A stretch of 61,760 bases of DNA, counting the filler, from Streblomastix strix (taxonomy: Eukaryota): NCBI GenBank assembly GCA_008636045.1. It is 3 parts of 3 records of this genome, joined end to end, with 100 filler letters (N's around TTAATTAATTAA, not from the genome) between each part and the next. Parts side by side here need not be neighbours in the genome. Positions count along the whole stretch, not along the records: positions 1 to 20,566 come from SNRW01000429.1; positions 20,667 to 41,225 come from SNRW01000430.1; positions 41,326 to 61,760 come from SNRW01000433.1. One strand, 5' to 3'. Below the pieces are notes generated by a model. The model did no database searches, was not told the DNA's origin, and worked only from the letters and a program-made list of their open reading frames with translations. Below are positions 10,269 through 57,400 of the stretch, one piece after another. Each line of letters begins with the position of its first letter. Position 1 is the first letter of the stretch. The position numbers were made by a program, and so were the translations under genes.

Positions 10269-12836
10269 ATGACCTCCCCATCTGTAGTGAATAAAAGTGA
10301 GCGTATGATAACCGAATATTCTGAAGCAGGAAATGAAGATGAAGGTGAAGACGAAGGGGAAGATGATATTGAATTGCAATAAAAATAATAAACAGAAATT
10401 ATTCTAAAAAAAGAACCAATCAGTAAACGTAAAAGAAAGAAAAACTCGCTCTCTGTCAATTTAACATGTATATACATAATATTTTTTAACTTCAGTTTCA
10501 ATTTATTAATAATATTCTTTATTTCTTTGCTAATATTAGTATGTAAATATTAAGTGCTTAAGGACGTTATCAAAGAACTTGGATGGGTAGAAACAGAAGA
10601 TGAGAATGAATGGATTTTATTTTGGACAGACAGATCAGTCTGTGCAGATCGATTAAAGAGGATGCAAAGTTATCAGAAAATAAATCACTTCCCAGGAATG
10701 AGGTAAATTAATTATCAATATTTGCTGAATTTAATATATAATTATCATTTATTTCATTTATTATACTATCATCATTCATTTTATTTAATTTATTAATATT
10801 ATTTTCTACGATTAATATATTGTCATCATTCATTTTATTTAATATATTATTTTTAGCGAAATAACTCGTAAAGTTTGATTAATAATAATCATATTTAATA
10901 AAAATTTTGATAATTTTTTATATCTTTAGGATTGTTTAGGAAGAAATATGAACAGAATGAAGAAGCTCTATCCTGAAGAATATAAATTTTTACCTAATAC
11001 TTGGATTCTACCACATGAGTATATCAATATTTAACGTTAAAATAATATTTTTACCAATTAAAATATGATTATTAATTTAATTTTCAGTTACAATGATTTA
11101 AAAAACTTTTGCTAAAATCATCGAAATACAAAAACGTTAATAGTGAAACCAGATGCAAGTTGTTAAGGAAGAGGAATCTTTCTAACTCGAGATCCAGACT
11201 CAATTTCATATTCAGATGATTTTGTAGTATAAACATATTTGTCTAAACCTCACCTTATAAATGGATACAAATATGATATTAGAGTGTATGTTCTAGTTGC
11301 ATCATGCAGTCCTTTATGAGTATATCTACACAAAGATGGGATAATACGTTTTTGTACAGAGAAATATGAAAAGCCATCTTCAGAGAATATCACACATCAA
11401 TACATGCATTTAACCAACTATGCAGTTAATAAGAGGAATAAGAATTTTGTCTTCAATAAGAATAAAGAAGCTGATGATGAAGGAAGTAAGTGGTCTCATG
11501 CATCATACAGAAAATATATGGAAGAACATGAAAAAGTGGATATTGATATGTTGTGGAAACGTATTGGATTGTGCTGTGTAAAGGTTTGTAACATATTATT
11601 TCATTATCATTGAAATTATTATATTAATTATCATTGAAATTATTATATTTATTATCATTGAAATTATTATATTTATTATCATTGAAATTATTATATTTAT
11701 TATCATTGAAATTATTATATTTATTATCATTGAAATTATAATATTTATTATTTTATCATACACTTTTAACAGGTGATAGTACCAATTCAATCTATTTTAT
11801 CCCATACATATACCATTTGTACTCCAGATGATTAAATTACAGCTAGATCGAGCATGTGCTTCGAAATCCTTGGTTTTGACGTTATTCTGGACAATTAACT
11901 TGAACCACATGTTTTGGAGGTAAACCATTCCCCATCTTTTGCAACGGACACACCCTTAGACCACCACGTTAAAGTATATTATTATACTTTATTATTATTA
12001 TTATTATTAATTCTCATTCTTCTTATTGTAATTTTTCTTTATATTATTAGTTTTCAGTTATTCGTGATACTCTTATTCTTATGCACATTAATACATCTGA
12101 TAAATTTACATGCAAGAGAATGTAAAGATAATAACATCTTAAAAGAATTCTTCGACCTATTTAATAGCGACCATCATCTCCGTTTGATAAATAAGATAAA
12201 GAAAGAACTGAAAGAGACAATAAATCAAAAGGAATAAGAACATAAGGTCAAATATCTTCAAACTAACCTTAATCATAAAATTAGTAACTTTCAAACTAAA
12301 ATACTGATTTAATTCCGTAAAGATCAGGAAGCGCGTAAATAAGATCAAAAACATCGAATCTAATTAAGAAGAAGACTCCAATATCAATAAAACCCTTTGA
12401 TCCATAATTGTGGGAATAAAATCATTTAGGAGAATTTATTAGAATTCATCCTATTCCAGAAACCGAAGGATTTGAAAGATTTATTATTTCACCCGAATAA
12501 TTCTTTGCAGCAGAAACAGCATCGTCAAAAGCAAGAAGAGAATAAATACAGCGTTCAAATGAAGAGAAAGAAAAAGAAAGATAAAAAATAGCATCAAATC
12601 GACCATATGGAAGTTCTATTTAATTAACAAATGCAAATACAAATAATTCAAACATTTCTTCTTCATAGGCATAATCAGTATCTGGAAATATATAAAATAA
12701 ATAATCATCATCATCTAATACTTAATTATAATCAGTAAATTCAAATAATAATATAAGATGACCATCAGCTTAAAGAAGCAATCCATTTCTTCCTTAATTT
12801 CCTTCTTCCTCACCAACACCACCAATTGATACAAAC

Positions 12837-12906
<70 letters not shown>

Positions 12907-15900
12907 CAATATATTCATAATATGCACCTCCTGGAACTACATAAGTTAGTAATATCCAACAGAGAACATCATACAGCGCAACTGGATAAAGTAGTACAAT
13001 TAATATAAATGAATAAAAAGAAAATAGAAATTAAAGAAATAGAAAAAGAGTAAACAGAAATATAACATGAAACAGAATAAATTAAATAGAACTTCCATAT
13101 GGTCGATTTGATGCTATTTTTTATCTTTCTTTTTCTTTCTCTTCATTGAAATTAATATATTTATTTTTCTATCATACACTTTTAACAGGTGATAGTACCA
13201 ATTCAATCTATTTTATCCCATACATATACCATTTGTACTCCAGATGATTAAATTACTGCTCGATCGAGCATGTGCTTCGAAATCCTTGGTTTTGACGTTA
13301 TTCTGGACAATTAACTTGAACCACATGTTTTGGAGGTAAACCATTCCCCATCTTTTGCAACGGACACACCCTTAGACCACCACGTTAAAGTATATTATTA
13401 TACTTTATTATTATTATTATTATTAATTCTCATTCTTCTTATTGTAATTTTTCTTTATATTATTAGTTTTCAGTTATTCGTGATACTCTTATTCTTATGC
13501 ACATTAATACATCTGATAAATTTACATGCAAGAGAATGTAAAGATAATAACATCTTAAAAGAATTCTTCGACCTATTTAATAGCGACCATCATCTCCGTT
13601 TGATAAATAAGATAAAGAAAGAACTGAAAGAGACAATAAATCAAAAGGAATAAGAACATAAGGTCAAATATCTTCAAACTAACCTTAATCATAAAATTAG
13701 TAACTTTCAAACTAAAATACTGATTTAATTCCGTAAAGATCAGGAAGCGCGTAAATAAGATCAAAAACATCGAATCTAATTAAGAAGAAGACTCCAATAT
13801 CAATAAAACCCTTTGATCCATAATTGTGGGAATAAAATCATTTAGGAGAATTTATTAGAATTCATCCTATTCCAGAAACCGAAGGATTTGAAAGATTTAT
13901 TATTTCACCNNNNNNNNNNAGAAGAAGACTCCAATATCAATAAAACCCTTTGATCCATAATTGTGGGAATAAAATCATTTAGGAGAATTTATTAGAATTC
14001 ATCCTATTCCAGAAACCGAAGGATTTGAAAGATTTATTATTTCACCTGAATAATTCTTTGCAGCAGAAACAGCATCGTCAAAAGCAAGAAGAGAATAAAT
14101 ACAGCGCTCAAATGAAGAGAAAGAAAAAGAAAGATAAAAAATAGCATCAAATCGACCATATGGAAATTCTATTTAATTAACAAATGCAAATACAAATAAT
14201 TCAAACATTTCTTCTTCATAGACATAATCAGTATCTGGAAACATATAAAATAAATAATCATCATCATCTAATACTTAATTGTAATCAGTAAATTCAAATA
14301 ATAATATATGATGACCATCAGCTTAAAGAAGTAATCCATTTCTTCCTTAATTTCCTTCTTCCTCACCAACACCACCAATTGATACGAATATATAATAGTA
14401 ATAGTAATAATAATCAATTTATTCATAATATGCACCACCTGGAACTACATAAGTTAGTAATATCCAACAGAGAACATCATACAGCGCAACTGGATAAAGT
14501 AGTACAATTAATATAAATGAATAAAAAGAAGATATTAATATACCATATTAATAATAATCAAGTTAATTCTGGTAATAAGTTAAATCAATTACTGATAAAA
14601 ATGAATCGAATATCACCTCAAATTAAAATTCGTAAAACGATTCATCAAATTAAATTCAATCCAACTAATAAAGTTAAGCCAATTAAATAAATAATGATAT
14701 TAAAAGAAGGTAATCATTATAATTTATAGTAATGCATCCTCCTCCATCAGATTATACGTGGATACTAAATAAATCAATTGATTTACATTCTAATAATAAA
14801 GAAATTAATAATAAATAAATAATTAATTAAGAAATTAGTGAAAATGTTACTTTACAGAAGAAAGAGATTATAGCTGGTTTATAACGAAGATGGAGTGCAT
14901 CTAATTAGAAATAATAAAAAGAATAATAATAGGAATAACAATAATAAGAATAATAATTAAAATATAAGAAAGATGCAATCTTAGAAAGATACGAATTGAT
15001 GAAATAATTAAATTTCAAATAATTTGCATCTTAAATTGTTGAATATGGTAAGAAAGGTGGAGGAAAGAAATAACACATTTCAATTGCACAATAATAAATA
15101 GATTAATTATAAGAGAAAAATAAAATAATGAAGAAAAAATAAGTTGAAATATAATAGACTGATAGTTCAGATAAAGAATATTATGGATAACAATTTATGA
15201 AAGATAAACTTTCTAATGAAACTAATGATGATATAAGAATGAGAAACAAAAGAAAATAAATTAATGAAAATTAAGTTTAAAATATTAATGATAATAATAA
15301 AGAAATAAATCAGTTATAATAATAGTAAAATCAAACAAATACAAATCAAATCATTTCATAAACTTCATCACTACTCATATAACAACCTATTAATTCTTAG
15401 ATTGAAAATTCAAATTTGGAGTAATCCGAACAACAATAACATATACAATCCATTTCACATATATTTAATTAATAACAATCAATACCCATTTCATCACAAT
15501 AATAAATATAACCAATAAATATATCTTCTTAATCTTAAACAAATCCGTCTTCATTTTTTAATCATATATCAGAATCAAATTCGAATTAAGAATCTTTTAA
15601 TTCATTATAATTAAGTTAAAGATCATTAACATCTTCTGGCAGACCAAGACCCCAATCAAAGACTTCATAATCATCAAATCAAAATACTTAAACTGGAATG
15701 TCAGCATCAAAAGATGAAAATGAATATTAACTAAGATAGTCTAGATCATCCAGTGCTGACTCAAGATAGAAATAAGCATTGAATAATAAAGAAAATATTA
15801 TTTTAGTTATTAATTCAAATCGTTATGATGAAGATCTTCGTTCTAGCTAATTGTCGAATAGATTAAATTCAGTAAGGAGTATATAGTAATAAGATAATAT

Positions 15901-16666
15901 CATTGATTATAAAAACTTTGAATCTAATAATATAAATCCGATCACAACTTCAAATATTACTTTCAATGGATTAAATAATAATAAAAATAACTATTAAAAT
16001 TCAATATCTACTGCAACGAATCATCTCCCAATTGCATATGTATAACAACAAATCAAACGAAACTCAATGTTTGCACCATCTTCCTATTAAGCAAATTCAA
16101 ACATCACTGATAATAATAGCAGAAGTAGTGATAATATTAGTTTAAGTAGTAGAAAAGAACATTAATAAGAAACAAATTCATAATAATTTGAAGGGAGAAT
16201 ATCCAAATCTCCCAATTCAATATATTCATCTACATCATCATCATCCATTCAATAAACAACAAAACCTTATCATAGAATTAATTTACATATCTCATCTAAT
16301 AACTAATTATCACCACAAATATCATCAATTAAAAACCATACATTACTTTCATAAAATCCTCTTCTTTATTAATCACGTTAATCTCCATCATTCTACACTT
16401 CAAATATTAATCAAAATAATACAAATTCATACATATTTCAATCTTCTAATTAAATTCGATCATCGCCATCACCTCCTGCTGCTAAAAAACCCGGTACACA
16501 ATCTTCATCATCCTCTTAATCATCTCCTCGTCCTAAAATCAACTAGAATTCGCCAATATTAACTGGGAGCAGGATAAGTAGTCGATTAAGCGCAGATCAA
16601 ATACATATATTATCACCACCACTACTAAGATCAATTGAAGCAAGAAAATTGAATGGTCAAATATGA
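10269..16666 (+). CDS. Tubulin polyglutamylase TTLL6/TTLL13-like with a long Q/N/S-rich tail; contains an internal duplication and in-frame TGA codons
   Basis: QKINHFPGMSEITRKDCLGRNM, IVKPDASCQGRGIFL, KYDIRVYVLV, MHLTNYAVNK, CFEILGFDVILD, LEVNHSPSFATDTPLD, HLGEFIRIHP, ETASSKARREQ. Confidence 0.9.
11604..11747 (+). repeat. Intronic 24-bp minisatellite, about 6 copies
   Basis: Unit ttatcattgaaattattatattta in tandem, no spacers. Confidence 0.9.
12840..12905 (+). repeat. (TAA)n tract encoding poly-Gln in the TTLL frame
   Basis: In frame with DTNI-QQQ...-SIYSQYAPP; the second copy (~14392-14412) mixes TAA and TAG. Confidence 0.85.
13063..14530. repeat. Near-identical duplication of TTLL exons (about 11755-13020) with a short inverted piece and a 10-N gap
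   Basis: 13170-13909 repeats 11755-12493; 13920-14530 repeats about 12367-13020; 13083-13147 is the reverse complement of about 12558-12622. Confidence 0.9.
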
Positions 16667-17090
16667 ACACCTTATAAAATATCTAGTTTTATTACATTTT
16701 TACCAATAAATACAATTTTTACAATTAATTAATATGGCCTTGGGGTTTAGTTTTATTCTTTTGGCGTTTTCAAAATTTCAATTTGGAACGTGATTCTTAG
16801 CCGCCTGTTTAGTAATTTCTCTGTATATATTTATAATAAACAAATATTAACTTGATCTTGCATCACTATTATTTGCATCATCTGACACATTGTTGGTGTC
16901 GAATTTGAGAATCCAAATCTTCTATCAGTTTTATACAATAATTCCAACACTAATTATTAATTTTTTTATAAGAATTTTTATCTTTCCATCGAATTATATT
17001 GTCTTTATTGTCTATTTTATTCATTATTGAATTTATTACAGTTATTTTACTCCCTATCGTTTTTTTTCAACAAATCAATAATTTAGCAAA

Positions 17091-20000: not shown

Positions 20001-20566
20001 ATCTCTTCAAGCAAAAGATGCTTAAGCTTCATAACTCTAGAATGCATTATTTGATCATACACTACTAAACTTAAATGCATAATTAACATCTGATCTCGAT
20101 ACACCACAGGATAGTGCAAGACATGAATCTAATCTTGTATCATTTGCACAACAACTGACACAAGGAAGCGGTCTTGTAGTATTTGGTGGAATTCAAGAAG
20201 ATGATCCAATCGCGCTATTTAAGAATAGGAATAGGAATAAGAGAAGTACAAATGATATTGATTCATCTCCTTTGAATCTACTTCGTGCTTCTATTGATGC
20301 TTTTAAGCAAAGACTTATACAGAATAAAATTGATGCATTTGTTGAAGGAGTTTGTTCATCTAACTTCTTTGAAGGAGTGTCTGCCTTGTCACAATGTGTT
20401 GGAATTGGACAACTGAAGCCAAATTTGATTTGTCTGGGCTGGCCTGTGAATTGGAGAAGAGGGCACAATGGATCTTCTCTCAATTAGAGAGATGAAAAAC
20501 AAATAATATTCAAATAATAATAATTATAATTAATTGGTTCATAAGAAGAAGGCAATTAATTATTTG
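17091..20566 (+). CDS. SLC12-family cation-chloride cotransporter, 3' truncated by the contig end
   Basis: [116 protein letters not shown]. Confidence 0.92.
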
Positions 20567-20666
20567 NNNNNNNNNNNNNNNNNNNNNNNNNNNNNNNNNN
20601 NNNNNNNNNNTTAATTAATTAANNNNNNNNNNNNNNNNNNNNNNNNNNNNNNNNNNNNNNNNNNNN
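20567..20666. other. Artificial contig linker
   Basis: N-run + ttaattaattaa + N-run; the same linker recurs at 41226-41325. Confidence 0.95.
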
Positions 20667-21264
20667 ATATCGCGGACAAAACGTTTTAAATCGAGATTAA
20701 GCAGAAATGCGAGTATAAAGTCTCATAAATTAAGAAAATACGTCATTACAGCTATAAGTTAAAGCAAGAATTCATCCCATATTTCGAGAAATTGCATGGC
20801 GAATATGCTGAGACGATTGATAAAGGATTTAATGAATGAAATCCCCCAAAATTCCACAGTTAAAAAACCAATCTGCATTGTGAAATACAAAATTCATAAT
20901 TATTATTTTTGAAAATTCATTTTTACAAAATTCTCACAAAAACCCTATTTTAATGAATGAAATCATAAAATAATCATATCATCCTTAAATTTTGGAGTGT
21001 ACTTGGTATTTTGTTATATCAGCCGTCATTCCCGATCCCCTTTTCCAATTTCACCACCTCAACCTCAGTTACATCAGTTATTACCCTAATCATTAAATTC
21101 CCTCTTTTATCACAATTTCTTATACCATCCCCCAAACCTTTAATTCATACCCCATTTCAATTACCCCAGTAATTCATCTTCAATTACCAACAATAACCCC
21201 AATTTTAATAAATCTTTTTCAATCTCAAATCTCTCAAATCCCCCATATAATTATTTATTCCCAG

Positions 21265-21682: not shown

Positions 21683-22147
21683 AATTTGTATGATAATGAG
21701 AATTTGAATAAATTTAGTTTACATTTGGCTAAATTGGGATAATTGTACATTTTTTCTTATTATTTCAATTTTATTTTGCTTATATGAATTGCTTCTTGTT
21801 TATACTCAAATTTCAACTGAAGAAACAGATTAATTAGGATTTTATTGTTCTTTTTTCCTTTTTACTTTTATCATTTTAAGCAAATCATCTTCTTCATCAT
21901 CATCTTAATTATCTTTTTTCTTCTTTTGTCATAACTAATTATACCTTTATCTGGATCGAATCTCTCGAGCGGTTTGGATTTTCTTATTGGACTCAAATTC
22001 CGACTCCCTTCCTCTTTCTTTTTTTCTTCTTGCCTAATTTTATCTTTCCTTAATTTTTCTTTATTTTAGTGTTCCTTAGCTTTATATTTCTTTTCTTTGG
22101 GTAATAAGTCAAGCTATCTTTGTTTTACTATTAAATTTCTCATATTA

Positions 22148-22859: not shown

Positions 22860-25045
22860 AAGTAATAAAACGATGACAAGCAGGAGACCGTCGCATAAAT
22901 AATTGCAAGATTGTAAAGTGAGATCGAACTATCTACAAAATTAAGACATAGAACGCCTGAAATACTTTTCTTAACGTGCTAGGAAGTGCCAACTACTTTC
23001 AAAACCGTCATTCGCGCTTGTGCTATTTCACTTCAAACTGAAAATGAGATAAAAGTCTACAGTATATTTTAAATGAAATGAGATTATTGAAGGGCAGCAA
23101 ATGTGCGCCTTAAGAAGTACGAATTCTGCAGCTCGAGGAAAAACTTTGTTGTTCCAACAAATAGCGATGGAATTAGAGCTACACACGCAAAATTATGACA
23201 TGATTTTATTTCGGTACATACACTTGATTCATCAGAAAATACTGAAAGTACAGGTTTGCAGAATAATTTTTTTAGTCGTTTTTTTTTAAATATAAATTTT
23301 TCATTAATTATCTTAAAGTTAAGGTAGTTAATTGATTCATATGAATCAATAAAGAGTGATACAATGATTTAGTCTCAAGAAATTGTTGCATATGTAAGTT
23401 TCATATATTTTTTGAAAGAAATACAAATTTTCTTTATCAAATTTTAACTTTTTTTTTATTTACAGCTATATACTAATTAGAATCCGAGATGAAAAAGGAT
23501 GATATACCATCAGTTATTGTTCAACATGAATATTAGAAATCGTTAACATAAGCTGGAAGATAGAGAGAGAAGTATTTATGGAATTAGCATTTTCATAATT
23601 CGAATGAAACTAACTAAATGCAACATGATCAATTTAACTTTCTTTCGAGTGATTCCTAATCAAATGATGAGAAGGAAATGAATGAATTATTCTCAAACTA
23701 GCAAAAAAATGAAATTAAACAACCAGGTGCAAGAAAGAAGTTAACCGATTCGGATTCTGAATATTCGATTTGCCTTTATTTGTAATCTTTAAGAGACAAA
23801 GAGTAAGTTGCAAATGCTGCTATATAATCTTAAGTTCAAACTTGAAATTTAAGAAGTCAAGACACTATTCCCGAATAATCGATATATAAAGAAGAATTGA
23901 GAATAGGATTTGCAAATGCTTTACGAAATTATGAAGATGCATAAATACCTGATGATAGACATATTGAATGCAGATCTAGTTAAACTTATTAACCTGAAAG
24001 TGAACCTCTGCTAAAACATGATGATGACTAAAGACTAAAATCAATGTAGTATTTTCATCCTATAACCGTTTAGTCAGATGTAAATGATGTTGAATTGAAG
24101 CACATAATTGCAGGTTAATACCAATTAGTTCCGAACAGTTGTCCAAAGTCATATATAGGAAATTATCAGTTAATTCCATAAAAACAATATTGCTATGGAC
24201 CTAAAATTGCACTATATAAAATATTCACTGAATTATTTCCATTTGCATCAACATCATTATCAAACTTCTATAACAAAACAAAGAATGTGATTGAGCCGAG
24301 GAATAGGACATATCTATGCTCTGATTGTCACATAAGTGAACAAATAGAAGCTTCTATGAGATCAAAAAATCTTACTACTGATTAACTAGACGAAGACAAA
24401 AGAGAATTCATGAGATTATTGGAAATCCATAAAATGAGGGCAAATCATCAATGACAAACGATGTATAGTGATGTTTTCAATGTGAGTCCTGGAGAAGTTG
24501 TACTATTAAGAGATTTTAAGCATAATATCTATTTACCTCTAGAAATTGATTAAAAGGGCTACTAATTCTTTGAGAACTAACCTATAACATGCTTATCAGT
24601 AGTTGCCCATTCATGCAATGATTATGGAATACATGTCAAAAGGGTGTACACATTGTTATCAAGATGTCTTACTCACACTACCGGATTTGTCTTAAAATGC
24701 CTCAAGTTAATATTTGCCCAACCAGAATTTTGGGGAATTAGTCATGCTACATGGTGGAGTGATGGTGGTCCAAATTTTAGAGATAAAAAATTTGTTTATG
24801 CCTTATTAAGTAATGAAAAACATTTTGTTAATGGTTGAACATTTTCTGTCAACTATTTCACTCCATCACATGGCAAGTCGGAAGTGGATAGTTGTTTTGG
24901 TTTCTTTAATCGTTTAATGAAAGTTGCCCTTCCTGAATAAGGAATAGAATCATTAAACGAACTTCTAACATTTCTTGAAGATTAAACGAACGAATACAAG
25001 AATGCTGATTAAGAAAATTAAAAGAAATGTAAATTCTTTAAGTAC
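22860..25045 (+). mobile_element. DDE-type transposase gene, Sola-like, with introns near the 5' end and in-frame TGA codons
   Basis: RTYLCSDCH, VVLLRDFKHN, TWWSDGGPNFRDK, VNYFTPSHGKSEVDSCFG; one frame from about 23465 to 25042. No TIRs identified. Confidence 0.7.
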
Positions 25046-25125
25046 ATTTTAAATAAAATTATTACTAAATTTTATTTATATATAATTAATTATTTTTCAT
25101 TTAATATATTTAATTTCTCTTATTT

Positions 25126-27090: not shown

Positions 27091-27109
27091 TACATATAAT
27101 ATATGGCAC

Positions 27110-27860: not shown

Positions 27861-29080
27861 AGTAGGAGGTGCTCTAGTCGCATGTATAGTAGAAAATGAA
27901 TGGAATAAATGAATAAAAGAGCTCATACACGAGGACGACTGAAATGTTTAATTTTTTGCTGAATTTAACACATCTTTGTATAAACTAGGTGTTCTATTTA
28001 TAAGAACACATAATATTAAAGCATATAAATATTAATTATAGTATAATTCTAATAAAATAGATGAAATAACATATTTATTTGATTTTTATTTTCTTAAATT
28101 GTCAACCATATAAACGCAGTAAACTTTAAAAAACGAATATATGTTTCTGTATCTATTCATTAACCTCTTTTTCTTCATTTCACAGAATTCATTCATATCC
28201 ATCAACTTTTCTCAATTCAAGTAGGATTATTTCACAACTGGGTACTTTCTTCATAACTGGGAACACTTTTCTGTTTTCAAACTTATTGATTCGATTTGGT
28301 TGAAATTAATACAACTGGTAGAGTGTCGAAAATAAATAATGCATTTTTTTTCTAAACTAAAATTATAAGCTCATTGGTTCGGGAAAAGCGCAGAAAAACT
28401 CGATGTCTTAATTTTTTGGATATGTTAAAATTTCAAAATTCCATTGGTTTATCATTTGTAACTGCATGCACATGTAACGAATAATACACTAACATAATTT
28501 TTAGCTCAACGCTGGTTGCGTGGAACCTTACATAAAATTGCTCAATGCTGATTATAGCATGTATTAAATAATTGTATTGGTTTTATATTTAATTTTCATC
28601 TATTTGCACATATTATTGTCGAATCTTCATTTATATAGAAATTTTTCGATACATACATATAAAATTTGACTTTTTATAATTTTCTGACAAAAACTTTTAT
28701 ATTTCTTTATTCACAAATAATTTCTTTTCCAATTTAGTTTAATTCTTAATATAAATTAATGATAAATATATTAAGATATAATTTAATATATATTTATTTA
28801 TAGGGTAACTAAAACGTGAGGAACAAAACAAAAATATAAAAATATTGAAATTTACTTCACAAATAAATTCTAAACTTATGAAAAACATTTAATTATGTTT
28901 TATTTATTTTTCTGCATATAAATTTATTACTAAACAAAATAATAACGATCAATAAAAAAAATTTTATAAATATTCTATTTTTTATTACCTATTTTCTTAC
29001 ATTATATTCAATTATTTTTCTTACAAATAATATTTTTTCTTCTATTTTATTTTTTTACAAATCGTTTTATTAAAGTTTTT

Positions 29081-29680
29081 GCTGGAAAGATGATATATAG
29101 CAAAGGCGGATGATTCAAAGTATATAAAAATGACAAATTTGAATAGCAAACTCTATACTTCTTTCCGCATGAATTCAAACTTCTGGATCCTCACTAAAGA
29201 TTATCTTTTGAAGTTGCTTATGAGACATTTGAAGATGTAAGCATTACTCTGCCTGAAATGAATGGATCAAAACAGAAGCACATGTTGGAATCTCTGCAAC
29301 TGATTACTCATATTTATAATTCTAGGACGTCAATACAATTGATGTTCACACACAAATTGGAATATCTTCATCAATAATAGTTAATAAACTTTCTTATTTC
29401 TATAATCTATTGGGTCCTTCATTCATAATAGATATAGCATGCTCATCCACACTTTTTTCGTTGAATTGCACATGTCAATCTATTCGTAATGGTGAATGCA
29501 GATCAGCTTTATGTGGTGCAGATAATCTGAAAAGGTTTCTTGAGATTACAATTCGAATCAGTGAATTAAGAGTACTCTCTCCAGATGGATAATGTAAAGC
29601 TTTTGATGATTCAGCCAATGGATATGTGAGATCTGAAGGTGCTGGATTACTTTCTTTGAAACCACTCTTTGATGCATAAA
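29081..29680 (+). pseudogene. Type I polyketide/fatty-acid synthase ketosynthase (KS) domain fragment
   Basis: LLDPHQRLSFEVAYETFED, KLSYFYNLLGPSFIIDIACSSTL (active-site Cys 29440-29442), LSPDGQCKAFDDSANGYVRSEGAG. Confidence 0.9.
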
Positions 29681-38200: not shown

Positions 38201-40929
38201 GTTGCCAAACATGGAATCAAACTTGGTGAAGGAGCATAATCATTTAGTGTAACTTCAGATAATTTTGTATTATTATTATAGCAAGCTGAAAGTGGAGGCA
38301 AAGTTGATATTACTGAAACAAAAGAGCATCCGTTCAAATAATATTTTGAGAGGAGCGGATCAACAGCAAATATTGCATTAATATTCAATCAAACAATAGA
38401 AAAACTTGAATAATATAAAATATAGAGGGATTATGTAGCCAAAGGTGGACCAAACAATTCATCAATCTACCGCGATCCAAAAGTTGACATGACACTTAAG
38501 TTAACTGATGGATCTGATCCTGAAAATCCTGAAGAGTAACTTCTCTACACACGTTTGGCTTCATCTGCTTGTATTGTGCTATTTCACAATGGCAGTAAGC
38601 TACAGACCATTCATCAAAGAGTGATTGAAGTTCTTATTGAAGAGATTTTTCCTCCAAGACTCGAATAGTCATTGAAAGATATTAACTTATCCCCCGAACA
38701 CAAAGAAATGATGGAAAAGAGACTAAATGATGCCAGTATAGCAATTATTGCCCTCGGATACTTACTCCATCTTCCGGGTATATTATTCCTCTTCTATAAA
38801 ATATTGAAATATTTATTTATTTATATATCAGCAAATTACGTGTTTGGGGATAAAAATTCTATTACTGGAAACATTTAGAAATTCCTTATGCTTAGCGAAA
38901 TGTATCCTGAAGCGTATGCATTATTATTAATTTATGATATTAAATTTATTTTATTTATTCCTTTACAATAAAGTGATGTGGTTCATGCACTAAGTCTTTT
39001 GTCAGTGCTTGCAAGGAGCACTCCAAATGATTAAGTTATTGCGGCAATTAATTCCGTCATGATTAGTCCTGAAGTTGCAAAGATTCGCCAATTACAAGTT
39101 CAGCGAAAAGAAGTTGATGTGATTGAGAAGTTGAATATCCTTGAAATAGTACTTACTAAGTTTGGCTACAAATAATAGAAATAGGAACTGCCATCATTAG
39201 GATCAAATTATGGATCAGGAATATCATAAACATTTTCACAAGTTCAAAGAACTCTCCCACCTCAATAATTGATAAATCAATTTTAAATTCTTCAACCATC
39301 ACTGATTTCATCTATACCTTCCTCTTCATAAACACGTCCACTATATGATAAAACTAACTCTGATATTAATAAACCTAATTAATCACAATTGATATAAGAT
39401 TTATAAGCATTGAATTCTCAATTAACTTAAACTACATCAATACCTTCTTCAACAACTTCATCTTTTATCTAATAATTATCTCTAATTCCAAACTTCAATA
39501 TGAAATGGAAGAAATCAAATTGTATGAATATAATTGTTTAATTTTTAATCATATTTATTTTTAAACTTCAGTTTAGAGAATGGAAAGACTTGGCAAAGGT
39601 GGATTTGGAGAAGTATGGAAAGCTAAAGTTATATCATCTGGATAGCTTGTTGCATATAAAGAACTTGCTTATTACTCAGACGAGGAAAAATAAATGGTTA
39701 ATAAAGAAATTACTATAATGTTAGATATTTACTAGATTTTACATAAGGCTTTTCCTTCTTCATTTCTTCATGTTGTTGAACCGTTGGGTTTCTTTGTTGA
39801 AGATGAAGAATTCAAAGCTTATCTTGTGTTGGAATGCTGTTCTAATGGTGATTTGCGTCAATATATTAATTAAATGATGAAAATGGGAGTTGAGATCAGT
39901 GATAAAGTATAATTGAAATTTAGTAATAATAGTTTATTGAACTTATATTATAAACTTCATTTTTACTTATAATTTTATTATCATTAATAATCTTATATAT
40001 CAACAATGTAGAAAGCTTGGGAAATGGTTGGTTAGGTTATAGAGTCTCTTAATCAACTACATGCAAATGGAATAATACATGGGTTTACCAAAAAATATTA
40101 CTATAAATAATCTTATTTACATTTATTGATATTTTATTAATATTTTCAGAGATATGAAACCTGAGAATATCCTTCTAACTGAAGACTTTGAAGTGAAATT
40201 GGGTTTACTATTAAATATTTTTCCTTAATAGATTTATATTTGAAATTTGTAATTTAGCTGACTTTGGTTTGACTAAAAAGTTATAAGAGGGAAGAGAATA
40301 CATAACTGCTTTTGGAGGAACAACGTTTGATATTTTGTTTTCATATAATTGAATCTCATTTTTCATTATTATAATATACTATTAAGTCGCTATCTTTCTC
40401 CTGAACTTCAAAAAGCAGATGAACCACAATAAAATGGAAAGTCTTAACAGTTTGCATAAAAAATTCCATATTTTCTATATATTTATTTTAAATTATACTT
40501 GAATTTATTTATCTATTAATCTCAATTTAAAGAAAACGAATGCAAACAAAAGCAGCAGATATTTGGGCTGTAGGGATTATGATGTACGAACTTTTAGCAA
40601 AAAGACATCCATTTTTCACAGATAAGGCATTTGATTTTTTAATTTTCACATTACTTATTATTTTTTATTTATAATAGGAGAAGAACATTTCACTTGGTGA
40701 ACTTGTCCTTCGTGTGACAACTATTAATCCTCCCGAGATTCCAACTCATTATCCCGAGAGTTTACGGAAGCTTATCAAAGGGATGCTGGAAAAAGTGTGA
40801 ATTTAATTATTTTTTCATTTCTTTATTATTACTCTATTTTATTTATTTAATAAGGATCCTTCTCGGCGTATTACTTCTGAGTAAATCCTAAAAGTTCCTG
40901 AAGTAGCAGAAAGTTTGAAGAAGGAATGA
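35252..40929 (+). CDS. Multi-exon protein with an N-terminal kinase-like domain, an ARM-like helical middle and a C-terminal NEK-like Ser/Thr kinase
   Basis: Domain 1: LGAGAWGRV, LAIK, HCNIKPSN, DFG, HPPE, DIWGLG. Domain 2: LGKGGFGEVW, VAYK, HGDMKPEN, DFG, YLSPE, DIWAVG, DPSRR; TGA 40927-40929. Confidence 0.85.
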
Positions 40930-43877: not shown

Positions 43878-43879
43878 TA

Positions 43880-45531
43880 CAGTCAGTCCGCAGTTCCTGG
43901 AAAAGTGGAAATTTTTCCATTTTTTTTGACATAATACCACCGCAATAAAGTTAAAATATCTTCAAAGCCACAGTTTTAATCATGATGATTTTTTGTATTT
44001 TTATTAAACACATAATATAGATTCAAATAATACTGAAATGCACTCACTCATCTTTTAGAAGGTCGCAATTTAGCACGCCAAAGTCAGATTGTTTGTATTT
44101 TCGTATGACTCTAGTTCCGATTTATTTTGACAATATATTATCTTTTTCGCATTATTTAATGATTGCATCAAACTTTTATTCGTTAATCTTTGTTCTCCAA
44201 GGCCATGCTGTTGCGTCCCGCTCGATTCCTCCTTTTTGCCAACTGTTGACGAGCGTTTCCAGACAAACTGACATTTAGTAAGCACTTGCAGACAGTTGTA
44301 GTAGCTCTGCCAAAGTGTCATGATGATAATTTCGTCTCAATTATTGAAAATGTTCTTTATAAGTGCCAAATACGCCAAGATCAAGTACTTACAAATAATG
44401 CGTGGAATTTGGGAGAGTCATGATTAGTGCAATATTGTTATCTGCTAAAATTTATAATACCTCATGATTAACGTGGCATTTGCAACCATCAGAAATTATG
44501 AAACCTCGTTAATTCGGTAGATTATACTCATTTCTCAAATATTAGAAATGCGGAATCAGAAGTTCGCGAACGATGAGTTTGAATACTTCCAGGGTCATAT
44601 TACCATTTTCCGTTGAGTAATAGTAGCAATTAAAATTCTTCCGAAGGCCCCTGTTAATTAATTATTGTTCATCAAAGCCTTACTTCAGCAAAAAAATTGG
44701 ATTGAAAAATTCCATTGACAACGAAATAACCGCGAGAAGGCTAAAGTGCGGCTCGCTCCTATCTGCTGGCATGTGTGCAGGTACATCAGCAACCCCTTTC
44801 GGAACAATTATTGGTTATGGACGAGTATCGTGATACGCTTGGTAACCAGTTTCATCAAGTTACAAAATGAATGCACAAATTACGCCCAAAATCCAAATTT
44901 TAAGAACTTCTATATAGCTACGAATATCTTATATTTTCACATTCATTCTCTTTTCATCTCTTTTTTTTGCAATTTACATTTCCAGTTCATTGTCATGTCT
45001 ATCGAGGAAGCTCTGGTGAAAACTACGCCCAACGCTATGGCCGGCTTTTTGTTCCACTATCCCTCTTAATGTTTGTGGTGAAACTATCTTTCCATCTTTG
45101 TACTATTATTTAATTTCTTCGCAGACTTCCTCCTCTTCGCTTGATTCGAGAGTCATGCTTTTTTTTCTTGAAGATTTTGTTGCAAGGCGATTATTTCTGG
45201 CCTTGGAGACCAATGGCTCGTTACAACTGACGATTCCAGCTATTTCAGCGTTAGTCAATCTAGAAATTACTTTTCTTTCCTCCAATAAAAATAGTTTGCG
45301 TACAAATTATCTTTTTGTTTTTGGTTAGTCTTTCCTCATTTTCGCGTTTATAGAGTCAAAATCAAACTCTGATGTTACTTTATTTAAGCGTCACATACAC
45401 TGTTCGAAGTTGTATGATGGTTTACTCTTAGTTTTTGGCATCGATTCACTATAAATTGGCGATTTTCCAAGGGTAAATAGGGGGAAAAAAGAGAAAAAAT
45501 TTCCACTTTTCCAGGAACTGCGGACTGATTG
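43880..45531 (-). mobile_element. Tc1/mariner-superfamily (pogo-like) DNA transposon, apparently full length
   Basis: About 37-bp TIRs ca(g/a)tcagtccgcagttcctggaaaagtggaaattttt with one mismatch; TA at 43878-43879 and 45532-45533. Confidence 0.95.
44044..45441 (-). CDS. pogo-like DDD transposase, 465 codons, single in-frame TGA at codon 17
   Basis: LDETGYQ, STENGNMT, ISDGCKCH, PNSTHYLQVLDLGVFG; 1398 nt, no frameshift found. Confidence 0.88.
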
Positions 45532-45710
45532 TAACATTAAAATTTTTTATAAATTTTTGTAAATAATTTATATAAATATTTTCTATATTAGTTTATGAAC
45601 AATATTTAAGTTAATTCATTGAAATTTTATATAGTTTGAACAAAGCCAAAAATAAAAAAAATAAAGGTGCAATGGTTTTGGATTTTAGACAGACGCATTG
45701 CTCTATTAGT

Positions 45711-48700: not shown

Positions 48701-50906
48701 AAATGAAAATATTAGTAGAATTAATAATGTGGATAGTTAATCCACAGTCGTTGTAGACAATACTAATATTCCTAGTAGTCTATCTCCTTTTGTTTAAGAA
48801 TAATAACCTGAATAATAGTAATAGTTATCTCCTAAATATATTGAATAATCTTATGATTCTCCACCTTTTGGCCTTGATTAACCACTTGATTATTCATCAA
48901 TTCATCCTTAATCTCCTTAATTTTATACTCCAGGTGATTATAGTTTATAATTTATAAATTTTTCGTCTCCTAAATAAGAAAGTTTTTCTTCTCCGTCCCT
49001 AATTAATACCAAAAATGATAATGATAATCTGCCTTAGATGAATTATGATAATGAAAACAATGATTTGCTTCCTCCTTAATAATCATCACCTCACACTACA
49101 TCGACTCAATCATATGCTCATTTATCCATTACATCAAAATCTAATTCAAAATATTCAACATCTACTTTTTCATCATCTTCTACAGGTACAACAAAGTCAT
49201 CAATTCGTTCTTCTCCCTAATCCGAATCATCTAATCAATAGTCCATCAGTTCTTTTAATAGGTCTTCATTATCTTCATAGACCACATCAACAGTTACATC
49301 TAATAATTCGCATTCATCAACTTTGCAGTCCTCATAATAAAAATAAAGGAGCTTGTGTAAATACTGTAAGAAATTGATTGATAAAAGTAAATAATCTTAA
49401 CATAAACTTACTTGTAAGAAGAAAAAAGGTTCAACAAAATCAAGAAATTAATATAAAACATAATAATAAGAAGATGATGATTGGTTCTAAGATGTATATG
49501 AGGAGGAAGATGAAGAAATTGATGGATAAAGCAAATTATATACATAATAAGAAGCAATCGAAGAAGATGAAATATAAAAAAATAATTTTAATTAAAAGAA
49601 GAAAAAGAAATTAACATCAAAATCTTCAACTATTAATTCATCAGTAGCAATTAAACATTTAAAACCAACTTCTTAATCATCATCAATTACAGCTTTAAAT
49701 CTTCCTCTTCCTCCTCCAATACCTTTTCTCAATACATCTAATCAGAATTAATAGCCAATTTCATTGAGTGAAATTTTATCTTAATAACCTACTTAATAAA
49801 CTTAGTAAGAAAATGATATGTCAATTCTTCCTTTCCCAAACAAATCTAAACAACCATAAAATGACTATCAAAATTTATTGGTTTTGAATGTTATTTAATA
49901 AAATGAAAAAATAGAATAAATAAATTTTCCTTCAAATATATCATCTCCAAAGATATAATCACTTATTATGCCAAAGCCACCAGATCATGTGAGTAAATAA
50001 CATTCTAATTTATAATCATTATCACACAACTTTTCATAGTCACTTTCCAATCCTCTTACAAATCCACTTGAATTTATTCCTTCTGAATAATTATCATAAA
50101 CAACTCCTTCTTCATTATAATTAAAATCCCTTCCTCCTCCACCACCAATAACATCCCTATAATAATAATAATAATAATAAACTATTAATCCTCCAACTAA
50201 TACACCTACTAATACTCCTATTGTACCTTTATTATCTCTTCTTCCATCATCTCCTTAATCACAGTATAATGATCAATCTCAGAAACAAATATCATTGGGA
50301 GAAACACAATCTTAATCCACATCATCATTTAATAGTAATTTCCCACAACCATTAATAACAAAACTTGGTAATTCTTATGCCAGTGATATAACTATGAATG
50401 AGAGATCATTATTAACTAGTAGATCTTCATTATAAACTGATAGCAGCTACAATAGTAAAAACTCTGGTCAAATTGGAGAATAAAGCGAATAATAATCTGA
50501 CTCTTCTTCATCAAGAGCATTATCAGATTAATAGAGTAAAACAATTCCAATTCATTCTCCAACATAATTTAAGCCAAAATCATAACCTTAAGAACAGCCA
50601 TAAAGCAAACTTGATATAAATTGGAGTAATATGAACTTTTCTTCCACATATCCTATTTCTATATCGCAAGGAGCTAATTAAGAAGAAACCAAAGAGAAAA
50701 GTAAAAGTGAAGAAGGATTTGAAGAAGAAAAGGATAAAATAAATTAGAACAAGTAATTTAAAGATAAAAAAGATGATGAAGAAAAGAAAGAGAAACAAAG
50801 AGAAGAGATTAATGGAGGTATGACTAACAATCAACAAAACATTACAATTTAAACTCCTTAGAAACCCAATTCTTCTTTCAGCTACACTCCCAAAAAACGA
50901 TAATGA
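45711..50906 (+). CDS. Multi-RRM RNA-binding protein with a long Q/P/S-rich tail, a PAM2-like motif and a small C2HC zinc finger
   Basis: GVYIGDLVEELSEEEIVQAFNKFGQV...YGFIWF; KTLLITNIPP; FGQLVSLEY..QAIVKY; QFKQYGNVVKV; LNPKSDVFIP; CKYCKK..HKLTC; TGA 50904-50906. Confidence 0.8.
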
Positions 50907-51428
50907 TTATCATATTAATTTATAAGGAAGTAAATTATAACTAATAATTATATGAAAAAGATCTAAATACATAGGGCAGATAAAGGATGAACAGAGGTTT
51001 AAGTTTAATTTATTTAAATCTTTAAGTCATTCTCGATTGAAATTGAAAATCTGCTTTTTTTTTATTTTGCAAACATTCCTTAGCTTAGTTTTTCTTCCAA
51101 TTATTTTAAATTATTTATTTTCACAAAATCAATTTATTTTTACTGGAGTCTGACCATATTTTATCAATTTCCAAGCATTAATCAATATAGCTTGTTTCAT
51201 ATATTTCATATAGAGCGTAATATATCATACATTATTATTAACTCTCTACGAGGCTATTTCTCGCCGAGCCAATAAATAACACAATGAGAGTATTGTAATA
51301 TGATTGATTTATTGAAAATTCTCTATGATTTTGAAATTTAATTATTGTAAAACTAATGAATGATAAAATTGTGAAGTGAGTGAATTGAATTAATTTTCTT
51401 AGATTCATTTTAATTACCTATTATGAGA

Positions 51429-54400
51429 TCATGAGTCTTCTATTAGATCATTTATTTTCCTTTTGGTCAGTCTTTGTTCTAACTCATTCTTGTGCTTTTG
51501 TTCGAACTCGTCCACAGCTGAAAATTAAACAAAGTTGTAAAAATATATAAAAATATATAAAAGGGCATAAAATGGATATTGATATTAAAACCTTTCTTCT
51601 GGTTGATTGGAAGAACTTTCATTTGTTCTTCCAATTCACTTTGAGCCCATTCAAGGCTTCTTGCACCTTCTATTAACTCTTCTATCTTAGCCCTTTTGAC
51701 TTCCTCACGTGTTGACATGCTTTCAACAATGAAATTTCTAATATAACCTCTAGTGATTTAATAAATACAATTCGGACATTGCGTAAGTTAGAATTATAAG
51801 CTGAATGTTTTAGATTAGATCACAGATTGAGATGGATTTGAATGTTTGGGGGTGATTTTAGATGAAGAAATCATTTAAGACTTATTTTTTTCTGGAGTAT
51901 GAATTGAAGATTTTATTGGTTCAATCATTGTATTGTTTTCAGTTATTTCAGGTCTTGTGAAATCAATTGAAAAAGATCCATCTGATTTAGTTGATAATCG
52001 AGATGGAGTCATTGGACTATCAAACTCGTTTCTATAATATTCTTAATGTTATTCTTATTTATTTTATTTAGTTTATTATAGTTATTACATGGCAACTGCA
52101 TGAGGACCATATTCAATGTCTTCATGGTCATTTGAGACATATGCTCCAAAATTCTCAATAGCAAACATCTCATATTATTATTGTTGTTATTCTATTTATT
52201 TTTATTTCTAATTTTGCTTTATTAAATCATTTCCTCTCCGATCTCCAGTTTTCCCATCATAATATCTCTCAGGTCCAAGATATTAGCTCTCTACTTCTAC
52301 CATGAAATTATCATAGTTACCTTATGATTGCTGAAACTTCTTTTATTATGCTGTAAATGGTCTTGTCATTTTAGAAAGTGGACTTTTAACTTATTTAACT
52401 TATTCAATTTATGTTTGTGCTTATTCTTTTCTCAATTATTTTATTTCTAATACTTTTTTATTTCCATTTTCACTAGGAGGGCCTCCACCCGCTTCAATAA
52501 ATTTTGTTTTTCCCAATCTACTATTGAAATTTTGTTGATTTAAAGGCAAAATTGCTTGTCCTATTATATCTTATTATTTTATCTATTTAGTTTTGTCCTA
52601 ATTTAATTATTTATCTTTTTAGTTTTATTATATGGAATCATTAAATGCCATCTTTCTTCCATAATTATACGCGCACCGTCGACAAATAGTATGCCCACTA
52701 AAATTATAATAATATTATTAATAACAACAATAATAAAATATGTATTTATGCACACCAAGGAATAAATGTAACAGGTTCTCTCAATACTTTAAGGCAAATG
52801 TTGCATGTAAGATCAACCTAATAAAAAGTAGATGGCATATATAGATTAAAAAAGATTATTATCACACCATCATAGCTTCATTTATTGTTTGTATATCAAT
52901 TAATGTTTTGGATAAATTGATTAAATGTCTTCTACAGAAGCTAGCTACTCCAAGAAGAGCTTGACAAATACCTGAGAAAGCAGCCTAATAAATTAGGAAA
53001 GAAAATAAGAAATAACGAAAATATTATTATTCTATACTCTAATCTTTGAAAGATCGTCTTAAAATCTTTCAATATCTTTCGCCATATCATCAATGTATTA
53101 TGATAAATGTCATGCATTGATAATTAAATAAGTCTATATTATAATATGAATTATAAAATTAATAAATGAAATTAATACATTTAGATGTTGAATTAATAAA
53201 AATAAAATATTAGTTTTCAAACAACTCCATCAAATTTGTAACATTCTGGTTTTAGTCTTCTTCTCATTCCATCTTCAGTTAATTGAGTCCAATCAAGAAC
53301 GAGTGTCATTTCATTCTAAAGAACAAGTCTAGCAATAAAAAATAGAATATATGATATAAGATAATAATATTCTCTAATTAATAGTATTATAATATCTTTA
53401 ATATTTCTTTATTTTCTTATTTGTAAACCTATGCACAGTATCTTTAGATCGATCCAAATCTTAACTTGTCTTTTTCATTAATTTAATTTTTTCATTCTAT
53501 AAGTATATTTATTAATTCATTTTTAGTTTTTCATCTTTAAGCTATTTTAAAATTTCAATAAATCCATCCTCTTATTTTTTCCATTCTTTTTCCTTTTTCT
53601 TTAATTTATCTTTAACAATAACTAATTATTATTCTTATTCACTCAACTAATTTGATTTACTTCTTTTCTTTCCTGTTCCACTACTTGCACTTCTCTCACT
53701 CAATTTCAATTAATATTAATTTTATTAATCCATTTACATATTCTCTTTCAGTTCTGCTTCTTTTTAATTATCTTTTATATTTGATCTACTGGAATGAGAC
53801 CTAATTACATTTGTATCAACTGAATCTATAATAATATTTTCTTTATTATTCAGATTATGAAGAGGAGATGAAGAAGAATGAGATATTTAAGAAGGAGAAC
53901 GAGTAACAGAAGTAAGAATTTATTATGGAATTTCTTATTTTATTGATTAGAAATTATTGTTTAAAAATGAATCAATATCAACATTAGGAGTTTACTACAA
54001 TTGTGAAAGTATTAATTATTGTTAATTTAAAGTTTTTTACATTCTTTTTTTCCCTTTTCTTTCTACTTATCTTCCTACTTCAATTATTTATTCATTTTAA
54101 AGCATATCTCCTGAAATTTATTCAAAATCATTATCAACTAAAAATTCATTATTATTAATATTATCGTCTTTTTCATTTAATCTTTCTAATTCACTATTAT
54201 TCTAGTTCAATTATGAATAATTTGGTATTGAGATTGATATTTCTCCATTATCCTATTTAATATCTAATGATTGAACTTAATCTAATTTACTTTTACTTTC
54301 ATCCATTCTTGGTTTCTATTTGCTATTTTATTCTTTCTCTTCATTTATTTTTCTTGATGATTATAATATATTTTAATCTTAATCATTGTTTTCAACGAGA

Positions 54401-57400
54401 AGGGATAACAATTTCTTTTTTTTCCTTAGATCAGTTTAGAGTATATTTACATTTTGAGGTGTTTCTTAAGTTTAATTTTCTTAAATTGCCATTTCTGAAG
54501 CAGATACTATATCTTGGAATAATTACGTTCCTTTGTTATTTTTTGCAAATTATGCCTACAATTATTTTAGTCTATTTTCACTTTTCTCTTTTATTAATTT
54601 ATTATTATTTTATTAATCCAATTATTTCAATTTTATTAATGATGGTCTTTTTCTTGGTGATGAATTTATTTCTTCTTCCTATTTCTTCTTCTTCTTTTTC
54701 TTCTTTTATTCATTCTCTTCTCCAATATAAATATCTTCATCATTATCATAATCTTATTCTTCAACAATGTCCAATTTCTGCTCCTTATTTTTTTATTCAA
54801 TCAATCTTTGCCTTCCTTCACCTTCAATTGTGATATTTGTTTGGCAATACTTAGTTGAAGATTATTTTTTGACTTATTTCATCAGGTCTTCAATTTATTG
54901 CTTCAAATACTAAATTAATTTATCTTTAGACAATTCTCTAATATTATAAATTAAAATTAAAATATTAATAAGAAATAACAATCAATATAAATTAATAATT
55001 CCAATCAATTTCTATAATTTTATTTTTCTATGTATATTTTTTTCATACATTTAATCTCTTTGTTTCAAATCATTTTCTAAATTTTCTTTTTCTTTAATTA
55101 ATTTTTCAATCTCTATTTTCAAATTTACAATTTATGCTTCAAGATTTGAGTTATTTTATGTTAAATTATTATTATTTTCCTATAAATTAAAAATTTCTTA
55201 TTTCAATTATTAGATTAAATCGTCTTATTTTGAATCACCAAGTTATTTATATACAATTTTTTCTATTGTTCTCAATCTTCCATCATTTCTATTCAAAAAT
55301 GAATAAATATATAGATTAAATATAAATATTAAGATATATAATAGAAATAAAATATGAAAAAAGAATGAAATTTTTATTAATAAATAATTACTAATAATCC
55401 ATTTATTTAATTTATTTAAAATACATTATTTTTTAATCTCCATTTTCGTCCCATTCATTATTTTATCCTTCTCCATTATCTTAAAATTTATTATCACTAA
55501 AGTCTTTTGGAGAATATGAAATATGAGGAACTTTTGACAGTTGATGTGGAGTTGGGGTTGGTTATGGAGAAATACTAAATCTATCATAATCATTTTCTTC
55601 TTATTATTCATCAAATGATTAATCTTATTATTATTACTATTATTATTACTATTATTAATATTATTTCGGTGATTGGTATATTTATGATTATTACTGTTAT
55701 TGTTAGTTCGGTGATTGGAATATTTATGATTATTTCCTTCTCAATTTTTCTCTGTACTCTCATTAATACTATTTTTATTCATCTTCATATTATTAATAAG
55801 GATATTTCTGTTAAATTAATAAATTAGATTTTGATTATCTTTCATTCATTAATTATATTTACAATTTTCTTTTTCTTTATTAATTATGTATTTGTTTCTA
55901 AGAATTTGATTTATGAATTTAGTCCTAATTCTAATAAGATAATTATGATGGTGATTAAGATGGTGAAATAGAATATTAAGATTTAGATTAAGATAAGAAT
56001 GAAGAAGACGTTTATGTAGTCTGAATAAGATGACTATTATCTTTTTGTGTCTTATTATTAATTTAATCATTAAATGAAGTGAAAGAAATTCTATCATCAA
56101 TATTATGTTCATGATCTTTCTATTCATTTGTTTCATAATCAAAATATTCATTATTTTACTTTGATATATTTTTATTAAGTTAAATCGTTTGATTATCTTA
56201 GTCTTATTATTTTAGATCTTTTAAACTTTATTTTAATTATTCAATATTTTATCCATTTTTTTGTAATTATTAATCATGCAATATTTTTCTCTCATTAACA
56301 AATTAATTTATTTTATTAAATTCTTATTCAATTTTTCCTTCTATTTCTTCTTTTCCTTCTCTTTCAATCATTTTTAATTATATTTCTTCATTTATATTAT
56401 TTTTTTCTATTTGAATATTTGGACTTTCATATGAGTTTTGAATCATTTCTTATTATCGGTCAGTAATTTTGTTATATTGTTGTAATTATTGTTGTCGAAT
56501 ATCCTTTTGAGACACATGTTTTCTAATATTTGGACTGCTTTGTATTGATTGTATTTAATTACCATCTAATATGTTATTAATTTATTTATTATTGATTTGA
56601 TCATTATTATTATTTGCATTAATTCTTGATGTCTATTATTTATCTCTTTATCTTTAATTAATAATTCTTCCTTCAATTTCATCCATATTCTCATTTTCAC
56701 TTCTATTACTGTTACTCATAATATAATTAATACTTTCTGTTGTATTCATAACATCAATTTCACTTCTATTATTCTAATTTCTTCTTCCTTTTCTTTCTTT
56801 ATCTCGAAATTATCCATCATTTCTTTCTTCATTTCTTTCTTCATATGAGTTCATATTTCTTTATTATGGTTGTGATTCAAATGTATTCAATAGTAATTAA
56901 GATTATTATTGAGATTATTGAGGATGAACTTAGAAAAAAGGATTTGAATCTTGATCACTCCATACACCTTAATTAGGAATAATTGATACTATTATTTTAT
57001 TATTTTATTCATCTCCACATATTGATCCAGTTAATCTTGCAACTTCTGCTTAATTTAATAAATTTGAAAATGATGAAACTAATTTATTTAATGATTTAGG
57101 TTATTGCCAATTTCCTTGCCATCATTATTGTTTTTATTGTGGATATTATGTTGTTTAATCTTGTCCCACGAACTTATGTAACGCAAGAGGAACAACAGTC
57201 ACCGTTTTCTCAACATTATTCTATCCAGAAGGTAATTATCGTTTAGATTTCATTCTTTCTGTTCCAGTTCCAAAAATAATTTCGTGTTTTCGAATAAGTT
57301 CATCTTCTTCTTCTAATGTCAGACCTCCTTTTTCTTTCCCATAGGGAGATTCGAGAATTTTGAGTGCTTCTTTATCCACATTTCTGGTTGAAAAAGCAAT

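Follow-up and report, generated by a model that had tools for sequence, protein, structure and literature searches.

Rare internal UGA codons, probably read as arginine, in the oxymonad Streblomastix strix

Can the codon UGA end genes and also be read as an amino acid inside them? The question is raised by in-frame TGA triplets in a window of 61,760 nucleotides (nt) of the oxymonad Streblomastix strix (the whole stretch of DNA analysed, filler included, made of three parts of assembly GCA_008636045.1 joined end to end), chiefly in the gene of a TTLL6/13-like tubulin polyglutamylase (the TTLL gene) and in a large coiled-coil gene whose C-terminal part carries a RING-type motif (the RING gene). 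A preliminary description of this DNA had proposed a code in which UGA is either arginine (Arg) or stop. Our own reading, to which we give a probability of roughly 0.58, is that UAA and UAG encode glutamine (Gln) and that UGA ends genes, yet that rare internal UGA codons are likely translated, probably as Arg.

The window is AT-rich (GC content of ~28%), intron-bearing and eukaryotic, with a mild depletion of CpG (0.75). Keeling and Leander are said to have assigned S. strix in 2003 to translation table 6 (TAA/TAG = Gln), with UGA as stop. TAA and TAG are spread through long coding frames, which are open only under this table, as the preliminary description had claimed. Two window frames translated in this way match the public annotation letter for letter, and the organism is cited as one with UAR = Gln (PMC11687900). 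Relatives named S. strix were found for a pogo transposase frame (three 90% cluster mates), a Sola-like element and a kinase. Among 10 further window frames, one was present in the public protein collection, without cluster mates. All 11 TGA triplets that had been listed are real, with position and strand correct.

In-frame TGAs in two host genes

The spliced TTLL model starts at ATG 10269 and has six GT-AG introns, no frameshift and in-frame TGAs at codons 233 and 623 only. Beyond codon 623, the frame continues open for 783 codons. The top three matches of the TTLL exon came from the oxymonad Blattamonas nauphoetae (54 to 58% identity). The TTL domain (PDB match to TTLL6, E = 9e−40) includes codon 233 (TGA 11317), whose column is Arg in 110 of 120 homologs and Lys in 6, in line with the residue expected beforehand. 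A metagenome scan gave three loci, and the two translated ones, which represent the gene of other organisms, also carry Arg at this site. The catalytic motifs are intact 3' of the TGA, and identity to homologs is 34 to 48% downstream (variable tail included) versus 46 to 71% upstream. Both conserved Trp columns of the exon use TGG.

The TGA at 11317 is present in RNA-derived sequence. Run X2 consists of complementary DNA (cDNA), as indicated by a template-switch adaptor, poly(A) and GT-AG joints, and comes from a sample that differs from that of the DNA runs; RNA and DNA support alike takes the form of assembled contigs, not raw reads. One X2 contig (depth 44.7) reads TGA at 11317, without a splice joint there, and its piece over 10928-11581 shows five differences from the window in all, none of them inside the triplet. 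The internal TGA is thus unchanged in the cDNA of a second sample, the outcome that the proposed code called for. A DNA contig across the site differs at three places, and its run may be the assembly's own source. The gene also has a 16-nt microexon (10857-10872), supported by the cDNA letters between the joints.

The middle part of the TTLL gene is duplicated (~11730-13030 and 13140-14530; ~1.2 kb with 20 aligned differences), most likely because two haplotypes were placed in tandem. An N gap (13910-13919) adjoins the duplication, and a Gln tract has 22 codons in one copy and 7 in the other. TGA 12759 (codon 623) and TGA 14312 are one site in two near-identical copies, so that the four TTLL coordinates first described, although all real triplets, correspond to three distinct sites. 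At TGA 14309 of copy 2, copy 1 has AGA, which agrees with the Arg predicted there; this exchange is the thirteenth coding difference between the copies. For 12759/14312, no homolog could be aligned. The frame 3' of 12759 is coding-like and constrained, its first ATG comes only 140 codons on, and no frame-keeping GT-AG intron of 21 to 129 nt spans the site. None of the cDNA pieces listed reaches 12759 or 14309.

Substitution patterns indicate constraint beyond the TGAs. Between the cDNA and the window, seven of the nine listed exon differences 3' of 11317 are synonymous (24% expected; P = 0.001), including all six in the catalytic exons. Between the two TTLL copies, 10 of 12 differences are synonymous (P = 4e−5), and so are the four found 3' of 12759 (P = 0.005). 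Two sites are common to both comparisons, and two TAA/TAG differences in a Gln tract were left out of the count. Neutral decay of a TTLL gene with two TGAs would bring ~80 substitutions and ~7 indels. The TTLL model and RING exon 1 have zero frameshifts versus 6 to 7 indels and 70 to 80 substitutions under decay (P of 0.002 to 0.006), given a rough indel rate of 8 indel per 93 substitution places among the matches listed in run X1, mostly from one element. The pattern of a pseudogene, i.e., neutral substitutions and frameshifts after the stop, is absent from the TTLL model. Passage of ribosomes through the TTLL UGAs would explain these findings most simply, and we consider translation of UGA in this gene very probable.

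In the RING gene, exon 1 comprises 681 codons from ATG 57475 that are open save for TGAs 57124 and 55762, and the RING-type motif sits 3' of both. No frame-keeping intron of 21 to 129 nt lies across 57124, and long X2 pieces are absent from 43900-61760, where the RING and pogo sites fall. No homolog could be aligned at either TGA; therefore, readthrough is supported here by frame continuity alone, which does not indicate the residue. Both TGAs follow a Gln codon, as does the true stop of the RRM gene; in yeast, readthrough is higher when a stop has Gln codons next to it (PMC13192750). With a coding score trained on the window, on a set that partly included the frames tested, TGAs 12759, 14309, 14312 and 55762 ranked top among 2,622, and 11317 and 57124 fell outside the top 70.

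Terminal TGAs and the residues facing internal ones

As first described, TGA terminates the genes for MAD2, the AMPK beta subunit, the kinase and the RRM protein, and the pogo frame also closes with TGA. Internal host TGAs lie more than 2 kb 5' of the gene ends, and for two true stops the distance to the end of the cDNA is 124 nt and at least 68 nt. The expectation that terminal TGAs stand close to poly(A) sites is compatible with these two transcripts, but the distances exceed those of heterotrich ciliates. One of the two belongs to an expressed and spliced WH1 gene (6748-7802, minus strand), whose matches to WH1 and, weakly, to VASP tetramerisation fall under the Pfam cut-off; from its sequence, it is possibly an Ena/VASP-like protein in a metamonad.

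Alignable TGAs number 12 (2 in TTLL, 2 in kinase models and 8 in elements) and face Arg (6), Cys (3), Trp, Lys and Gly (1 each). Arg is thus found at two of two TTLL sites, one of two kinase sites and three of eight element sites (P = 0.47 against the mutational expectation of 31%, which was computed for globular regions and in which Arg codons contribute more to TGA than any other single source). The only Trp is in a decayed element, which does not fit UGA = Trp. In sampled host exons, 211 of 5,527 codons encode Arg, and four fixed internal TGAs would correspond to ~2% of Arg use. Residues other than Arg were found as often as Arg at the element sites, but not at the two alignable sites of TTLL.

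The kinase sites come from 73 mapped S. strix paralogs, whose early ends are mostly at exon borders. Ten models that end mid-exon were looked up: seven were labelled partial, one came from another source and two were complete, the first of these ending directly before a column that is 69% Arg. In a further model (P0161), a gap begins at an Arg column, which could not be verified. The S. strix-type NEK-like kinases form a large family (P0131-P0200), in which the HRD of the catalytic loop reads HGD.

On their sequences, the TGAs of mobile elements would mostly reflect ordinary decay. The preliminary description had counted them as evidence for Arg, and this use did not hold, since only three of eight face Arg and the copies are frameshifted or decayed. 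Its view of TGAs inside long open frames stands for the TTLL and RING genes; the polB-type frame is broken and the Sola-like copy decayed. Arg was recovered at 634, where three of three viral HNH loci have it, and at 45393, where a sister copy 95% identical to the pogo transposase carries it. The PHROG score at 634 was highest with R (32.7 bits), followed by Q (30.3), X (27.1), W (26.0) and C (25.6). Arg was not recovered at two Sola-like sites: 24452 faces Cys (one of one paralog) and 24836 Cys or Ile (two paralogs). Of the other Sola-like TGAs, 23079 faces Lys, 23088 Arg and 23196 Trp, and 23843 is unaligned. Pfam recognised neither the HNH nor the Sola piece, and scans of viral and genome contigs gave no copy of this organism's elements.

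The polB-type element (1-4300) also carries an integrase-like frame, and its summed contig depth in run X1 is 10,000 to 260,000 versus 20 to 50 for single-copy genes. A rumen actinobacterial contig (L007:10001-10093) matches its HNH piece weakly (52% over 30 residues). The Sola-like transposase has the same stretch on either side (21800-22600 and 25050-25800). Retroelement pieces at 29500-34800 and 41400-43800 (both minus strand) are decayed, with a weak RVT_1 match, several in-frame TGAs and long frames that overlap. The ketosynthase remnant, found here in an oxymonad genome, has a Pfam ketoacyl-synt match (E = 5e−29) and PDB matches to polyketide synthases. An SLC12-like cation-chloride cotransporter gene (17088-20811, plus strand) has a long exon free of in-frame TGA, and its 3' end meets N stretches and a recombinase-like remnant. 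All coordinates are given in Table 1.

Table 1. Features of the S. strix window and the TGA triplets they contain
Feature	Position	Strand	Remark
TTLL6/13-like tubulin polyglutamylase gene	10269..16666	+	~1,400 codons, 6 introns, terminal TGA 16664-16666
In-frame TGA, TTL catalytic domain, codon 233	11317..11319	+	conserved Arg column
TTLL intron kept in cDNA contig	11019..11087	+	69 nt, in-frame
TTLL copy 1: AGA, then in-frame TGA (codon 623)	12756..12761	+	low-complexity region
TTLL copy 2: TGA TGA	14309..14314	+	14309 = AGA of copy 1; 14312 = TGA 12759
Large coiled-coil gene, C-terminal RING-type motif split by intron	51467..57475	-	motif read from sequence, unconfirmed by Pfam
In-frame TGA, RING codon 118	57122..57124	-	public annotation stops 117-aa protein here
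Second RING in-frame TGA	55760..55762	-	coding-like both sides
MAD2 terminal TGA	6607..6609	+	cDNA-defined exons; poly(A) 124 nt downstream
WH1/VASP-like gene terminal TGA	6816..6818	-	cDNA match ends 68 nt downstream
NEK-like kinase terminal TGA	40927..40929	+	gene end
RRM gene terminal TGA	50904..50906	+	gene end
AMPK beta subunit terminal TGA	59163..59165	+	gene end
TGA at Arg column, HNH/endonuclease VII motif, polB-type element	634..636	+	frame broken, very high copy
Sola-like transposase remnant	22920..25050	+	TGAs 23079, 23088, 23196, 23843, 24452, 24836
DDE_1 (pogo-like) transposase	44044..45441	-	one in-frame TGA, 45393-45391
Frameshifted type I polyketide ketosynthase remnant	29075..29652	+	decay control; TGA 29111 faces Gly

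Weighing the alternatives and a possible mechanism

Several observations weigh against translation of internal UGA as Arg. The six Arg among 12 alignable sites are not clearly above the mutational expectation (P ~0.13), the only intact gene with an alignable TGA is TTLL, with two sites, and of the two complete kinase models the second stops short of a column of Cys. TGA 14309 is present in one copy only, and its exchange with AGA would be equally neutral were 12759 a true stop. X2 support for TTLL comes from a single contig, in which an in-frame intron is kept and one A is missing (likely through slippage) from the seven-A run at 10406, and which ends at 12278. Internal and terminal TGAs show no obvious difference in sequence context, and the 3' untranslated regions (UTRs) exceed the 21 to 23 nt of heterotrich ciliates. 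Part of this would suit leaky UGA codons, passed by mixed near-cognate tRNAs (Arg, Cys, Trp) and not reassigned, an explanation that we hold to be unlikely while granting it a real chance. Ten of the 12 alignable sites face Arg, Cys or Trp, which are the residues that yeast inserts at UGA, and Gln, Ser and Leu occur at none (~26% jointly expected; P ~0.03); the kinase model ending before Cys points the same way. However, the Cys and Trp sites are in a decayed element or in a model of uncertain status, both alignable sites of the constrained TTLL gene are Arg, and two or three UGAs per mRNA demand efficient decoding.

The same constraint makes it improbable that the TGAs are nonsense mutations from CGA or AGA under plain table 6, with TTLL and RING as young pseudogenes or split genes. 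Synonymous differences are in excess 3' of TGAs that divergent alleles have in common, there are no frameshifts, the catalytic motifs persist downstream, and genes divided at codon 233 would have the TTL domain in two pieces. What speaks for nonsense mutation is the weight of Arg codons as a source of TGA, the depletion of CpG, the behavior of the element TGAs and the 1-nt deletion and retained intron of the cDNA contig; stops in pseudogenes are moreover a known trap, as they can mimic codon reassignment (Shulgina and Eddy). Since the sole cDNA contig is incompletely spliced, it may precede editing, and frame-keeping GT-AG pairs surround 11317, 14312 and 55762. That RNA editing or cryptic splicing takes UGA out of the mature mRNA is nonetheless very improbable: the cDNA keeps the TGA without a joint, no pair spans 12759 or 57124, and loss of the region around 11317 would remove conserved residues. 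Amplification or assembly errors have a close to negligible chance, even with a local duplication, N gaps in the assembly and 14309 in one copy only, because 11317 recurs in cDNA from another sample and 12759/14312 is found in both copies despite 20 other differences. Selenocysteine recoding was rejected, since the TTLL column is Arg, not Cys or Sec, and the window has no Rfam match that reaches the gathering score.

We therefore return to UGA as Arg or stop. The parts of this proposal that stand are a TTLL UGA present in cDNA, under constraint and at an Arg column, in a genome where UGA still terminates; its genome-wide extent does not yet follow from these data. That UGA is mainly Arg, as a low-frequency code of the whole genome, is somewhat favored over its negation, and we see an even chance for an independent nuclear code with no dedicated stop, in which UGA would be Arg genome-wide when far from poly(A), with 3' UTRs of ordinary length. 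A near-cognate tRNA-Arg (UCU, or UCG, or perhaps a dedicated UCA) could decode UGA where termination is weak. With no stop but UGA remaining, this tRNA might outcompete eRF1 at codons distant from the poly(A) tail. UGA would then be a rare Arg synonym (in the sampled exons, ~2% of Arg codons), and the code would be Gln/Gln/Arg (Q/Q/R) for TAA/TAG/TGA, at low frequency for TGA, which may also be stop. The preliminary description had derived TGA from CGA by relaxed reading of first-position C/U, but the sole allelic exchange seen is AGA/TGA, so that the tRNA-Arg(UCU) route fits better than the CGA route. The window contains no tRNA gene and no Rfam match at gathering score.

Comparison with known codes

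The oxymonad code proposed here shares its lineage and UAR = Gln with the table-6 code of S. strix, in which UGA is stop; at an internal TGA, the public annotation cuts a gene. Such a code would stay hidden because table-6 annotation splits genes. If it is real, a textbook table-6 organism would use all 64 codons as sense, and an ambiguous code would have arisen far from ciliates. The public gene set of an amitochondriate lineage would be fragmented at internal UGA (one cut was seen here), and claims of gene absence would be affected. We found no report of sense UGA in oxymonads in the open literature, a scope that excludes subscription journals and the paper on the genome of S. strix. Context-dependent codes with UGA = Trp are reported for Blastocrithidia nonstop and Amoebophrya sp.

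Condylostoma magnum and Parduczia also read UGA as Trp, with the distance to the transcript end as the proposed switch and a median 3' UTR of 21 to 23 nt in heterotrich ciliates (PMC4967479). They resemble the oxymonad in having one codon as both stop and sense without a flanking motif, but differ in the residue, in the length of the 3' UTRs (124 and at least 68 nt here) and in that internal UGA is rare here. If our reading is correct, sense UGA needs neither Trp nor ultra-short 3' UTRs. In yeast, tRNA-Arg(UCU) and the Trp and Cys tRNAs read UGA (Blanchet et al. 2018, PMC5866558). This near-cognate readthrough fits the AGA/TGA exchange and the spectrum of Arg, Cys and Trp, but it is low-level and mostly inserts Trp, whereas a catalytic domain would depend on UGA decoding in TTLL.

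The closest likeness is to the ciliates for which Chen et al. (2023, PMC10089648) reported TAA/TAG/TGA = Q/Q/R, i.e., the seven spirotrichs Uronychia setigera, U. binucleata, Sterkiella, Tetmemena, Stylonychia, Paraurostyla and Uroleptopsis. The preliminary description had known of no UGA = Arg code, and this report overturns that statement. A later paper on ciliate codes has neither "arginine" nor "Uronychia" in its main text. In U. setigera, 987 coding TGAs were counted, five of which face Arg in a tubulin ligase gene. Both groups would have TAA/TAG = Gln, a codon of the kind that Chen et al. term bifunctional and low-frequency internal TGA at Arg, with a tubulin ligase as an example, but the seven are ciliates, one with 987 coding TGAs, and here a handful of sites is found in Metamonada. 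Membership hinges on Arg across many genes, and the features found so far are TAA/TAG = Gln, terminal TGA and an internal TGA backed by a second sequence source, from which the oxymonad code may work like that of the Q/Q/R ciliates. UGA = Arg is thus not unprecedented; what would be new is that an oxymonad supplies an independent case. If true, Metamonada would have their first code of this sort and UGA = Arg its first occurrence beyond ciliates, and a second lineage would back the ciliate Q/Q/R report.

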